DNA of 12,398 nt from a virus (taxonomy: Duplodnaviria > Heunggongvirae > Uroviricota > Caudoviricetes). The stretch covers positions 1 to 12,398 of the IMG/VR virus record IMGVR_UViG_2645727991_000004; one strand, written 5' to 3'. The notes beneath the pieces are model-generated. The model was not told the origin of the DNA, searched no databases, and saw nothing but the letters and a program-made list of their open reading frames with translations. Positions 4,513-12,256 of the stretch are shown here, piece by piece. Position 1 is the first letter of the stretch; every line of letters begins with the position of its first letter. The translations under genes were made by a program, and so were the position numbers.

Positions 4513-4540
4513 CAAAAAAAACCTGCCACAGCAGGTTTTC
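4513..4540 (-). terminator. Intrinsic-terminator-like hairpin plus U-tract on the minus strand, between the T stop and the tape measure SD
   Basis: Minus-strand RNA reads acctgc-tgtg-gcaggt (6-bp stem, 4-nt loop; plus 4521..4536) followed by 7-8 U (plus A-run 4514..4521), then GGAGAAAGG and ATG 4497. The plus-strand version has only 3-4 U after the stem. Confidence 0.5.
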
Positions 4541-4548
4541 ATCATTAT

Positions 4549-5228
4549 TTATGACATTGCTGCAAAGCTCAGCGCGTCTTCCAGCGCCGCAAACGGATCC
4601 ACCTCCGGCTTATCCTCATCCTCGCCCCAGCAGAGCATGGCGTCCTTCAGTGCAACATTCATCCCCTGTGCCCCGAAAACCGCTTTCACGATCTGTGCAT
4701 TACGGATATCCCCGCGCTCATCACCCAGCGGGGATACCCTGTCGAACTCCATCCACATCATCGCCTCGCTCGCACTCAGGCTGTGCCGCAGTTCGGATAA
4801 GGTGCGCCCCAGACGGAGCGCAAGTCGCATCAGAAAGCGAATTTCCGGGCGGGCTACTTTTTTCTGGCCGACTCTGCATCAGCGATCAGTTCCAGTGCCT
4901 GACGCAGCAACCGGGCATGTACCGGACCATAGACGGCCAGCACCTGCTCACGGTCGTCCGGAGTGAACACCCGTTGCAGGTCAGTATCACACAGGACATC
5001 GCAGAACAGCGTCACATCCGCTTCCAGGTTACGGCGGGTTTTCGCCACCACCGACAGGGTATCGTCATCCTCTCCATCACCATTGAGCACTTCCTGCCAC
5101 AGATACCAGGCCTCTGCCGAAGGCTCCCGCAGCACCACGCTGACATTTCTCCATTCTGGCACCTTCACCGTTTTATGACGGAACCCCGACAGTCTGGCCA
5201 GCGCCAGTGTTTTCAGATCTTTTGCCAT
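4549..5228 (-). CDS. Tail assembly chaperone G-T fusion made by a programmed -1 ribosomal frameshift (gpGT-like)
   Basis: The G frame (codon phase 2 mod 3) ends at TAG 4856..4854. The ORF at 4549..4830 is in the phase reached by a -1 slip. Hand translation in that phase from the slippery run is open (KKVARPEIRFL-MRLALRLGR...), giving a continuous G-T product. This is the conserved chaperone position upstream of the tape measure gene. Confidence 0.7.
4854..5228 (-). CDS. Tail assembly chaperone G (gpG-like; not lambda G by sequence)
   Basis: 124-aa acidic ORF (EDDDTLSV, DDREQ) starting 6 nt after the tail tube stop and ending ...DAESARKK* inside a slippery AGAAAAAAG. The size, acidity and position immediately upstream of the tape measure gene fit a gpG-type chaperone. 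Confidence 0.75.
   Translation of the reverse strand: MAKDLKTLALARLSGFRHKTVKVPEWRNVSVVLREPSAEAWYLWQEVLNGDGEDDDTLSVVAKTRRNLEADVTLFCDVLCDTDLQRVFTPDDREQVLAVYGPVHARLLRQALELIADAESARKK
4857..4865 (-). other. Slippery sequence for the G/G-T programmed -1 frameshift (A AAA AAG)
   Basis: Plus 4857..4865 cttttttct is AGAAAAAAG on the minus strand, overlapping the last codons of G (R K K stop). The -1 frame is open downstream into the 4549..4830 ORF. Confidence 0.65.
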
Positions 5229-5233
5229 AAGCC

Positions 5234-5950
5234 TTATCCGCCCGCACCATTAACCGTTACTGTACACGCATCAGAGGTAATGCTCTGCGGCTGTTCTGCA
5301 GAATCCGTTACCTCGCAGGTATAAGCCCCCTTATCACCTGACTGCGTATTGGCTTTACTGAAAGTGTCAGTAGTCTGTCCCTCTACCGGCTGACCATCCT
5401 TCTTCCAGGCGTGTTTATAAGGCGGCGTTCCCCCGTTGACACTGACTGACATTGTCAGCAGCGCACCGGTATTCATGGTAAGTGTCTTCTCCAGATTTTT
5501 TACAAACGCCAGCGGTACCACATAGGACACCGGTTTACCCTTCAGGCGAAGTGAAAACGTTGCAGCCACCACGCCGTTGGTACCGGATGACCAGGTGTGC
5601 TGACGCACTTCCGCCAGGAACTTAAAGCCCTTACCGGACGGAAACTGCACCTTAAACGCATACACCGTGTCATTGTCATAGGCATCACGCAGGGCGTTCT
5701 GGGCCTGATTCAGATAAAAATTACCCGACATGGAAATCTCAGACGACGCCCCCAGACCGTTGATGTTCTCCTGCTCTGTGGAGCAGAGCGTGGTCACATC
5801 AATATCCTGTTTCTGACCGGCGGTGAACTGGACTTCCTTGATGGTGCAGTCCAGGCGCAGATATTCCGCCTTATCCATAGTTTCAGCAGTCGCCGGGGCA
5901 GATGAAATCATCACCTGCGTCAGCTGTGAGCGTTCATACAAAGCAGACAT
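5234..5950 (-). CDS. Major tail (tube) protein with a C-terminal Ig-like domain
   Basis: 238-aa ORF. The N-terminal ~150 aa are tail-tube-like. The C-terminal ~80 aa (SVSVNGGTPPYKHAWKKDGQPVEGQ...GAYTCEVTDSAEQPQSITSDACTVTVN) show an immunoglobulin-like pattern (W..DG ... Y.C.V ... V.V). A consensus AGGAGG sits 5 nt upstream of ATG 5950. Position directly upstream of G/GT. Confidence 0.8.
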   Translation of the reverse strand: MSALYERSQLTQVMISSAPATAETMDKAEYLRLDCTIKEVQFTAGQKQDIDVTTLCSTEQENINGLGASSEISMSGNFYLNQAQNALRDAYDNDTVYAFKVQFPSGKGFKFLAEVRQHTWSSGTNGVVAATFSLRLKGKPVSYVVPLAFVKNLEKTLTMNTGALLTMSVSVNGGTPPYKHAWKKDGQPVEGQTTDTFSKANTQSGDKGAYTCEVTDSAEQPQSITSDACTVTVNGAGG

Positions 5951-5963
5951 TCTGCCTCCTGAT

Positions 5964-10236: not shown

Positions 10237-10246
10237 AACCTGTTAC

Positions 10247-10264
10247 GGGAGGCGCACGCCTCCC
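10247..10264 (-). other. Perfect GC-rich inverted repeat (hairpin without a U-tract) just after the capsid gene stop
   Basis: Plus 10247..10264 gggaggcg-ca-cgcctccc has 8-nt arms that are perfect reverse complements. On the minus-strand transcript it lies 17 nt after the capsid TGA and 10 nt before the 73-aa ORF ATG. Confidence 0.4.
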
Positions 10265-10280
10265 GTCCTCCTCATCAGAC

Positions 10281-12218
10281 TCAGCCGCCGGACACACTGC
10301 CGTAGTTCACTCCGGTGATCACCGCCACCGCCGCGGTACGGCGACGACGCCAGTTGATCCAGCGCTCCGCACGGATGGCCACGCTGCCTGTCTGGAACAT
10401 GGAAACCAGCTCCACCGGGGACGGCGTGGTACTGTCGCCGGTCGGCTCAGACTGCATTTCCAGTGATGCCTCGCGGGACATATCCACTGCCACGCCGCCG
10501 TCATCCGCCAGATAAATATCCGGGGCATTCACCAGCACCAGCTGGTCACCCACGTACTGGGAGACAATCACCGGCAGCCCCTGGAAGGAGCCACCCAGCA
10601 GGGTCATGTCCGGGTATTCCTTCTGACCCAGCGCATTTTTACGCATGGACAGTGCCAGGGCATTGGTGCTGGACATCAGCCAGACCGCACCGGTGGGCTG
10701 CAGGTTTGCTGCCACAAACTGTCCAAACGCCGCCTCTGCATCCGCATCCGGGTTACCGGTTGATGCCGTGCCCTTCACATCATGGGTGATGGACGCCGGG
10801 GAGACATCTGCCACTGCGGCTTTTTTCGGGTCCACAAAGTCTGTATCCAGACGCGCCACCACCGCTTCCGCCAGCGCATTACGGACCAGTGCATCAGCAG
10901 CCGGACTGGAAAAACGGATCAATTCTTCCGTCAGTACCGCAATGGCCGACACTTTCGCATGACTGAAGGTGATGGATTCAAAATCAAACTTCGTCAGGGG
11001 TTTTGCCTTACCCTCACCCACCCAGCCGGCAGCACCGCCGGACACCTGGGCGTGCACACGGATATTGAACGGCACCTGACGAAGTGCAGGGATCCCGCCC
11101 TGACCAAATCGCCCGATAATGGTCTGCGGACGCAGGTAATCAATAAAGTCCTGTGCGTATTCCTGATATTCAGACAGGCTGCCTGCCCACTGCGGATCCG
11201 TGGTGGTCCCCGCGCCCACTGCCGATTTCAGGACATGATGCAGACGACTGTCATCCGGATACTGACGACGGGCCACTTCCAGGGCTTCAGATCGGACGCC
11301 TTTAGCCGCAGCCAGCGATTTGGCAAAGCGGGCGAAGCCAATCCCCTTATCCAGTTTCTGCTCCACACGGATCACCGGCGCAGAAGCCACCGCGGCCACA
11401 TTCCCGTTACCGGCCTGTTTCACCGGCTGCGCCGTGGCGGCCTTACCGGCTTCCAGTTCACGCAGACGCTTCAGGTGCGCATCCACCTGACGGATTTCCG
11501 CTGCGGTGTTGTCGTAATGCTCTTCCTCCTCCACATCCAGCGTGCGCCCTTCCTCTGCGGCTTTGGTCATGACCTCCTCAAGGGAGGCTGCCAGCGCTGC
11601 ACGCTTGTTTTCAAAACTTTTAATCTGTTCGCCAATATTCATTATGGTCTTTTCCTTATGAAAAACGGTTGTTGACTGTGCCGCAGCGCCGGCAGAAGAT
11701 GCGATTTTCACCACCGGTTTCCGGTTGCCGGACGCGGCAGAAAACGGGCGGTCGTAAGATTTAATGGTCCGGATGGTGCATTCCGCATTCGCGGGCACGG
11801 TGACGGCAGACACCTCCATCAGTTCCCAGCGCAGAAAATGCAGTCCGCCTCCGTCCAGAAAGGTGTATTCATGGGGACGGAAGCCCACGGACAGCCCCCT
11901 GACCAGCCCGGTCTTAATGGCCGCCCAGACCTCATCCAGCCGGGCAGCCAGTTGCGACGGCATATCCGGTACGGGCTTCACCAGTGTTGCCGTGATTTCC
12001 AGCCCTTCGCTGACCCGGCGTACCGTACACTGCCCCACCGGGCGGGAATGGTCATGCTGCCAGAGAAACGGGATCGCACTGCCAAACTCCGCGCCCTCCG
12101 GCTCCAGGATGTCACCATCCCGATCCGGAGAAGGTGTTGACGCAATCCCGGTGATCACCCGTTCATCCTCACTGAAGGATTTCATCGTCAGCAGGGAACA
12201 GGCCCGTTTAAGAGTCAC
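10281..12218 (-). CDS. Fused prohead protease (HK97 gp4-like) / major capsid protein (HK97 fold) polyprotein
   Basis: 645-aa ORF. The N-terminal ~160 aa (MKSFSEDERVITGIASTPSPDRDGDILEPEGAEFG...GLSVGFRPHEY...MEVSAVTVPANAECTI) match the caudoviral prohead protease pattern. A charged helical linker (EEEEHYDNTAAEIRQVDAHLKRLRELEAGKAA) resembles a delta/scaffold region. The C-terminal ~330 aa (RPQTIIGRFGQGG...VGEGKAKPL...AVLTEELIRFSSPAADALV...) look like an HK97-type capsid protein. The start is called as GTG 12218, 5 nt after AGGAGG; an in-frame ATG at 12185 is the alternative. Confidence 0.85.
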   Translation of the reverse strand: MTLKRACSLLTMKSFSEDERVITGIASTPSPDRDGDILEPEGAEFGSAIPFLWQHDHSRPVGQCTVRRVSEGLEITATLVKPVPDMPSQLAARLDEVWAAIKTGLVRGLSVGFRPHEYTFLDGGGLHFLRWELMEVSAVTVPANAECTIRTIKSYDRPFSAASGNRKPVVKIASSAGAAAQSTTVFHKEKTIMNIGEQIKSFENKRAALAASLEEVMTKAAEEGRTLDVEEEEHYDNTAAEIRQVDAHLKRLRELEAGKAATAQPVKQAGNGNVAAVASAPVIRVEQKLDKGIGFARFAKSLAAAKGVRSEALEVARRQYPDDSRLHHVLKSAVGAGTTTDPQWAGSLSEYQEYAQDFIDYLRPQTIIGRFGQGGIPALRQVPFNIRVHAQVSGGAAGWVGEGKAKPLTKFDFESITFSHAKVSAIAVLTEELIRFSSPAADALVRNALAEAVVARLDTDFVDPKKAAVADVSPASITHDVKGTASTGNPDADAEAAFGQFVAANLQPTGAVWLMSSTNALALSMRKNALGQKEYPDMTLLGGSFQGLPVIVSQYVGDQLVLVNAPDIYLADDGGVAVDMSREASLEMQSEPTGDSTTPSPVELVSMFQTGSVAIRAERWINWRRRRTAAVAVITGVNYGSVSGG

Positions 12219-12228
12219 ATCAGCCTCC

Positions 12229-12256
12229 TGAAAATAAAAAAACCGCCGGAGCGGTT
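12229..12256 (-). terminator. Intrinsic terminator (hairpin plus U-tract) on the minus strand, directly upstream of the capsid gene SD
   Basis: Minus-strand RNA reads aaccgc-uccg-gcgguu (plus 12241..12256) followed by UUUUUUUAUUUU (plus A-run 12230..12240), then AGGAGG (12229..12224) and the start. The plus-strand version lacks a U-tract. Confidence 0.55.

Follow-up and report, generated by a model that had tools for sequence, protein, structure and literature searches.

On the minus-strand transcript of a 12,398-nt stretch of tailed-phage DNA (IMG/VR record IMGVR_UViG_2645727991_000004, positions 1 to 12,398; hereafter the window, meaning this whole stretch), three short elements were analysed, each consisting of a GC-rich hairpin, a uridine run, a Shine-Dalgarno (SD) sequence and a start codon. 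The window holds the late operon of structural genes from a lambdoid prophage of enterohaemorrhagic Escherichia coli (EHEC) with an HK97-type tail module, equivalent to prophage Sp10 of strain Sakai and to the long-tailed Shiga toxin (Stx) 1 and Stx2 phages. The elements, which lie directly ahead of the genes for the protease-capsid fusion (T1), the tail tube (T2) and the tape measure protein (T3), are probably Rho-independent (intrinsic) terminators in the gaps of this operon, which would be overridden by Q-modified polymerase and, where Q is absent, would keep the late genes off. To see them as terminators within a late operon under Q antitermination is the standard reading of the arrangement and, on the sequence evidence, the best-supported one. 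In lambdoid late operons, Q-modified polymerase ignores terminators, whereas unmodified polymerase stops at them (PMC7547250, PMC7326022).

The first-pass annotation of the window had reported three elements of this layout, and these were recovered on the minus-strand transcript at 12257..12228, 5987..5962 and 4539..4511. The consensus AGGAGG ascribed to the first two was likewise found (12229..12224 and 5960..5955), the third site having GGAG (4509..4506). Where three copies of one architecture had been described, the layout is indeed common to all, but the elements are analogous and not sequence repeats. The gene named as capsid does encode the major capsid protein, though with a prohead protease fused to it (Peptidase_S78 plus Phage_capsid) and not as a plain capsid gene, and the phrase "three major structural genes" is a loose one, the tape measure being generally known as a low-copy protein.

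The T1 stem GAACCGC/GCGGUUU comprises 7 bp, 4 of them GC, and the isolated hairpin folds with -10.9 kcal/mol (z = -4.15 versus shuffles). T3 has a stem of 10 bp, in which a CCUGC/GCAGG core (4/5 GC) is extended by A4/U4 and closed by a UGUG loop; the isolated hairpin has a folding energy of -12.5 kcal/mol and a z-score of -3.6. After it come four further U, then GCCC, GGAG, 8 nt and ATG. T2 has a stem of 5 bp, all GC, followed on the minus strand by UUUUUUAUUAU, C, AGGAGG, 4 nt and ATG; with -8.5 kcal/mol and z = -1.2, its isolated hairpin is unremarkable by energy alone. The folding-energy calculation proposed as a check thus came out clearly better than shuffles for T1 (z rounded to -4.2) and T3, and not for T2. 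T1 and T2 share the motif UUUUUUAUU[U/A]UCAGGAGGC[U/A]GA.

As a measure of terminator character, the d'Aubenton-Carafa score d was used, which adds a U-tail score to the hairpin energy per length. Values of d = 36.0, 20.4 and 19.8 were obtained for T1, T2 and T3, which are the top three among four positive-scoring sites on either strand of the 12.4 kb window; all four lie on the coding strand. When the window was shuffled 60 times with its dinucleotides preserved, positive sites averaged 0.017 per shuffle and no score exceeded 0.1. A general terminator scan of the window also placed T1-T3 among the top terminator-like matches. With respect to the defining features of Rho-independent terminators, stems of 5-10 bp and loops of 4-5 nt were found, the stem is followed at its 3' end, without a gap, by the U-run of the transcribed strand, and the opposite strand is devoid of positive sites. 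On this point of sequence the earlier proposal was supported: T1-T3 conform to the definition of Rho-independent terminators, are present on the transcribed strand only and are practically never produced by shuffling. Termination was favoured over a mere hairpin with a U-rich leader because the GC stem abuts a long U-run, does so on the transcribed strand only, and survives replacement of the stem.

The fourth positive site is located inside gene M (1041-1060, minus strand) and reads GGCAUGGU-GGUU-ACCGUGCC, followed by UUUUUG; its score of d = 12.8 is far above the shuffles. This hairpin is invariant in 80 close relatives, which is uninformative, and it is absent from the M genes of lambda and HK97. 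An Rfam scan of the whole window at E <= 1 gave no match. Two other identities of T1-T3 were rejected. The T7-type RNase III hairpin has a duplex of ~20 bp or more, in contrast to the stems found here; and moron identity was discarded since neither an extra open reading frame (ORF) nor a promoter-like site was found in the three spacers of 63, 66 and 51 nt (promoter scan, ORF list), which leaves bare terminators.

In the proposed mechanism, unmodified RNA polymerase would enter the operon from a leaky late promoter/tR', a moron, an insertion sequence (IS) element or a spurious promoter. The GC hairpin would form during transcription of the U-run, and the RNA would be released just ahead of the ribosome-binding site of the next gene; as a result, the genes for capsid, tail tube and tape measure, together with those downstream, would be kept silent. 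During lytic growth, polymerase modified by Q at the late promoter would pass T1-T3 and transcribe the whole operon. T1-T3 would thus act as fail-safe terminators that make late-gene expression strictly Q-dependent. The tight packing of hairpin, U-run, SD sequence and start codon would be the outcome of fitting a terminator into a minimal spacer, and as a side effect the U-rich tract may aid ribosome loading.

Conservation was measured by scoring each sequence individually for a terminator and comparing the outcome with 334 control windows inside coding sequence of the same loci. The wider tail-tube family used for this purpose (61-100% protein identity) comprises HK97-like phages, one Klebsiella phage and metagenomic contigs. 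Upstream of the tube gene, 45 of the 49 distinct sequences contained a positive-scoring terminator, with 14 different hairpin sequences and the stem end 22-24 nt before the ATG. Upstream of the tape measure gene, a terminator was present in 47/53 distinct sequences; here 18 hairpin sequences were represented, and the stem ended at 17-27 nt from the start codon. Coding controls scored positive in 7/334 cases. About five of the six tape-measure-upstream negatives look like mis-called start codons, and the four tube-upstream negatives include locus L050, where the upstream sequence is unrelated, as well as weakened stems. Joint alignment and folding of 20 diverse tape-measure-upstream sequences with MAFFT and RNAalifold predicted 0 pairs, the stems being of unequal length and out of register. 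Because the position is conserved while the stem sequence turns over, the structure and its U-run are taken to be under selection; as judged from this turnover, the positional conservation of >90% over at least 14-18 independent stem sequences, joined by the Pseudomonas phages in the case of T1, shows as much.

These data bear on the idea that the elements have no function of their own, having arisen by chance, been left behind by lost morons, or formed as a by-product of recombination where modules meet. Moron insertion is documented for the junction of the T and tape measure genes, which gene 15 occupies in HK97 (PMC3594210); relatives carry inserts of 250-700 nt just upstream of the tape-measure terminator; and in a few loci homology breaks within ~12 nt of the hairpins. 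All of this would fit, yet shuffles yield ~0 sites per window as against the 4 observed, and the terminator is kept with or without a moron across phages of E. coli, Klebsiella, Salmonella and Pseudomonas that have different stems, which is a signature of purifying selection on structure. A lack of function therefore appears highly improbable.

Among close relatives, 31 upstream variants of T1 were found, in which the core stem ACCGC/GCGGU is invariant, the loop is UCCG or UGCG, and the outer A-U pair is changed to G-U in some. At the same junction of terminase and protease-capsid genes, Salmonella phage FSL SP-016 (77% protein identity) has CCCGC-GCAU-GCGGG, then U6 and GGAG, and Pseudomonas phage PAJU2 (48% identity) has GCCCGC-CUAGA-GCGGGC, then UUUCUCGUUUCU and GGAG; each of these stems differs from that of T1. 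The T1 region (12150-12305) is present in 1590 of 5426 complete E. coli genomes (~29%), at 2 places per genome in the median and at 22 in the extreme case. In EHEC-type strains these terminators therefore exist in many copies.

For T2, the core is invariant in close relatives and the 5' part of its spacer is variable; in locus L074, hairpin, U-run and SD sequence are kept with the tube gene although the upstream DNA is unrelated. A second hairpin with a long U/C-rich run (6014-6030, minus strand) lies on the stop codon of the tail completion gene, with a compensatory change in one relative. It was considered as a tandem terminator with T2 (6030..6014) and rejected, as it overlaps the stop codon, is weak and is gone in relatives with a TAA stop; since those relatives lack it, this hairpin is probably not functional.

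Two alleles of T3 occur among close relatives, AAAACCUGC...GCAGGUUUU and GAACCGC...GCGGUUU, related by a paired T/A indel by which the helix is kept. In loci L076, L045 and L038, hairpin, U-run and SD sequence of T3 are retained with the tape measure gene despite unrelated DNA upstream. The terminator is present both where the chaperone genes stand directly ahead of it, as in the window, and where 250-700 nt of inserted DNA lie between. In these three loci and in HK97-like loci, the inserts (morons such as HK97 gene 15) are always upstream of the tape-measure terminator and never downstream, and it therefore doubles as the terminator of whatever has been inserted. In FSL SP-016 (L246, KC139516), the tape measure start (~16627 versus 16707) is annotated 80 nt too far downstream; the likely true start comes after the terminator and GGAG, and the N-terminus read from the latter start is MATLRELIIKIS, as in the window.

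The retention of whole units invites a second explanation, namely that they are translation-initiation cassettes, in which the hairpin keeps upstream coding RNA from pairing with the ribosome-binding site, initiation at the SD sequence is boosted by the U-rich tract as an S1-binding or standby site, and termination is incidental. U-rich enhancers upstream of SD sequences are established in E. coli, and a U-rich tract 5' of the SD sequence, the sequence feature of an A/U-rich translational enhancer, is present at T1-T3. In its favour, the stem end stays at a near-constant 17-27 nt from the start across the family; the unit remains with the downstream gene over unrelated upstream DNA (L074 for T2, L076/L045/L038 for T3, the IS insertion for T1); and T1 and T2 have consensus AGGAGG ahead of what are generally known to be the two most abundant virion proteins. 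On the other hand, enhancers of the S1 type need no GC hairpin at the U-run, and yet it is kept in >90% of lineages despite stem turnover. The tape measure, as said, is a low-copy protein, and constant spacing is to be expected anyway from minimal packing of U-run, SD sequence and spacer. Furthermore, the same motif occurs after genes in HK97 and lambda (after lom, after the HK97 capsid gene), with no enhancer role there. In PAJU2, the tube-upstream terminator stands ~90 nt ahead of the start codon, which argues for a terminator that is independent of the ribosome-binding site. We therefore regard translation-initiation cassettes as unlikely.

A further hairpin, of 9 bp, GC-rich and lacking a U-run, directly follows the capsid stop codon (Table 1). 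In relatives it exists as two sequence alleles, both of which fold, and equivalents follow the capsid genes of lambda, FSL SP-016, PAJU2 and HK97, in the last of which the feature is annotated as a terminator. A possible function of the hairpin is that of a 3' stabiliser of the capsid segment of the mRNA. This is pertinent to the possibility that T1-T3 themselves are RNA processing or stability elements, at which a cut in the U-rich tract (e.g. by RNase E) and protection of segment ends by the hairpin set protein ratios. The U-less hairpins after the capsid genes fit a 3' stabiliser of the most needed segment, and RNase E typically acts where a single-stranded, AU-rich stretch comes after a stem-loop. 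Against this, the cistrons upstream of T1-T3 (terminase, tail completion, T) are generally known to encode low-demand proteins, for which no benefit is obvious; such a role gives no reason why a long U-run immediately behind the stem should be so strictly conserved; and the stems are far too short for T7-type RNase III sites. As the main function of T1-T3, processing or stability is thus quite unlikely. This and the U-rich translational enhancer, the two alternatives of the first-pass annotation, may be secondary roles, but neither accounts for a GC hairpin at every U-run.

Several observations weigh against termination under Q control as well. The stem of T2 is only 5 bp long, with its unremarkable energy, and the GC core of T3 is also only 5 bp, for which reason termination at T2 and T3 may be partial. 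Lambda has neither spacer nor hairpin at U-V (7-nt gap) or T-H (overlapping genes), in which it is unlike the window; a lambdoid late operon therefore does not need such elements. A translational role would likewise agree with the constant spacing to the start codon and with a cassette that remains beside the downstream gene when the DNA upstream changes. Finally, operon-internal promoter-like sequence that would need insulation was not found, the promoter scan of the window giving 2 promoter-like sites versus 5.8 expected.

An extension of termination under Q control would make T1-T3 dual-purpose module boundaries, which secure Q dependence, offer landing pads where accessory genes or IS elements can settle without activating virion genes, and in the lysogen give rise to short terminated RNAs that become Hfq-bound regulators. 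An example might be an RNA reaching from the 3' end of the terminase gene to T1, which by analogy would act like StxS at tR'. We consider this combined role very unlikely.

The features of the window are collected in Table 1. All its real genes are on the minus strand and represent the structural part of a lambdoid late operon, in the order protease-capsid fusion, small ORF, portal, 407-aa ORF, connector, head completion, gp10-like, tail completion, tail tube, G and T chaperones, tape measure, M and L. There are four intergenic gaps of >50 nt on the coding strand; T1-T3 occupy three of them, the only gaps with the arrangement of hairpin, U-run and SD sequence, and the fourth, of 211 nt, follows the capsid gene and contains the hairpin that lacks a U-run. 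Over its full length, the window shares 96-97.5% DNA identity with long-tailed Stx1a- and Stx2a-converting phages, and it is collinear with genes ECs_1972 to ECs_1985 of prophage Sp10 in E. coli O157:H7 Sakai.

Table 1. Terminator-type elements, start signals and neighbouring features of the window (IS, insertion sequence; SD, Shine-Dalgarno sequence).
Feature	Coordinates	Strand	Details
T1, terminator-type hairpin and U-run	12228..12257	-	stem 12257..12240, loop UCCG, U7-A-U4 (12242..12231)
AGGAGG and GTG start of protease-capsid fusion	SD 12229..12224, GTG 12218..12216	-	5-nt spacer
T2, terminator-type hairpin and U-run	5962..5987	-	CCCGC-CGCGU-GCGGG (5987..5973), then U6-AUUAU
AGGAGG and ATG of tail tube gene	SD 5960..5955, ATG 5950..5948	-	4-nt spacer
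T3, terminator-type hairpin and U-run	4511..4539	-	AAAACCUGC-UGUG-GCAGGUUUU (4539..4518), U8 run 4521..4514
GGAG and ATG of tape measure gene	SD 4509..4506, ATG 4497..4495	-	8-nt spacer
Hairpin directly after capsid stop codon	10245..10266	-	9 bp, GC-rich, no U-run; -23 kcal/mol in context
Prohead protease/major capsid fusion	10281..12218	-	645 aa; Pfam Peptidase_S78 + Phage_capsid; PHROG 617 major head protein
Tail completion gene, upstream of T2	6017..6361	-	Pfam Tail_completion_gp17
Tail tube (major tail) gene	5234..5950	-	238 aa; 66.7% identity to HK97 gp12
T part of G/GT tail assembly chaperone	4549..4830	-	Pfam Phage_tail_T; stop codon 9 nt ahead of T3
Tape measure gene	1255..4497	-	1080 aa; PHROG 339
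End of IS21-family element ISEc10	12299..12398	-	istB 3' end plus terminal repeat; by sensitive BLAST, 97-100% identical to the ends of ISEc10 copies at many sites in genomes

Three ORFs of the head region call for comment. The 407-aa ORF that follows the portal gene lacks a portal Pfam domain, and its match to an 859-aa "portal" PHROG is confined to the C-terminal half (455-859). The ORFs at 7485-8708 and 8705-10069 (minus strand) are joined by an ATGA overlap, and both are labelled "portal" in public records. Between capsid and portal genes, a 73-aa ORF of PHROG 829 (10015-10236, minus strand) overlaps the portal start by 55 nt.

At its upstream end the window is interrupted. Relatives possess an intact gene for the terminase large subunit, which ends 63 nt upstream of the protease-capsid gene; in the window, homology to them breaks ~7 codons ahead of the stop codon of this gene, where ISEc10 is inserted, its end lying 43 nt upstream of T1. 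An exact-match search of 12306-12398 in representative genomes gave no match, the identification coming from the sensitive search listed in Table 1. Since the terminase large-subunit gene is interrupted by ISEc10, this prophage copy has probably lost the ability to package DNA. The ISEc10 end contains a promoter-like match (TCGGCA, 16 nt, AATAAT; 12327..12300) directed outward, toward T1; so placed, it illustrates the kind of transcription that T1 would block.

In the prophage records, no regulatory features are annotated in the region examined. Marking T1-T3 would be useful for annotation, both for reading RNA-seq and Term-seq data of EHEC and for judging the leak of capsid and tail proteins from defective prophage copies, of which the window copy, with the IS in its terminase gene, is one case. 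For E. coli O157:H7 Sakai, Term-seq and dRNA-seq data are available (GEO GSE143631; PMC7547250).

Prophage Sp10 of Sakai provides the full context. Its antiterminator gene ECs_1958 is followed by five sense-strand terminators before the holin gene, and then by T1, T2, T3 and the M-internal site; the tR'-like terminators behind ECs_1958 span locus positions 645-660 and 972-989. On the + strand of NC_002695.2, T1, T2 and T3 of Sp10 correspond to about 1950290-1950305, 1956560-1956575 and 1958012-1958025. Neither the Q gene nor the late promoter is part of the window, and in the window copy the IS element separates them from T1.

The Hfq-binding small RNAs of EHEC prophages (HnrS/EcOnc10-12, StxS, AgvB) resemble T1-T3 in belonging to the same prophage family and in having intrinsic-terminator ends; StxS is an example of a transcript from a late promoter that, once terminated, serves as a regulatory RNA (PMC7547250, PMC13502914). 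They are unlike T1-T3 in that the promoter scan gave no promoter evidence upstream of the latter. HnrS (EcOnc10-12) was considered as one of T1-T3 and rejected, as it maps between the Rz and terminase genes of Sp10 (1946819-1946867), outside the window. By the filter stated for it, the Hfq screen of Tree et al. retained a site only if it was antisense to coding regions or >100 bp away from them; sense-strand sites as close to genes as T1-T3 would therefore be left out.

With lambda, the window shares a long late operon whose polymerase must become terminator-resistant. In lambda, GGCCGCCUGUGCGGC and then U7 stand directly ahead of capsid gene E, which is also followed by a hairpin; a further hairpin, with a short U-run, precedes J. 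T3 also resembles moron arrangements: it stands at the classic moron site between chaperone and tape measure genes, and in relatives the terminator is found behind the inserted genes.

The closest parallel is HK97. Its GenBank record (NC_002167) carries "putative terminator" features before the protease gene and after the capsid gene. Others flank the major tail gene, one in the gap that separates it from the tail terminator gene (6692-6719) and one behind it; a further feature separates the gene 15 moron from the tape measure gene (8398-8422), and I and J are each preceded by one. This annotation reportedly goes back to the HK97/HK022 genome paper of Juhala et al. 2000. As in the window, the junctions before the protease, major tail and tape measure genes are occupied, with the same layout of hairpin, U-run, SD sequence and start codon. 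Because the tube proteins are 66.7% identical, T2 is judged orthologous to the feature at 6692-6719, and T3 probably to that at 8398-8422. The two differ in that the fused protease-capsid gene of the window follows the terminase gene and precedes the portal gene, so that T1 follows terminase and not portal, and in that only HK97 has the gene 15 moron ahead of the tape-measure terminator and a terminator after the major tail gene. The placing of terminators in a lambdoid late operon by the first-pass annotation is thus consistent with the Q-type antiterminator upstream in Sp10 and with the annotated terminators at the same junctions of HK97. We conclude that the feature is already known in kind, and at the same positions in the close relative HK97.

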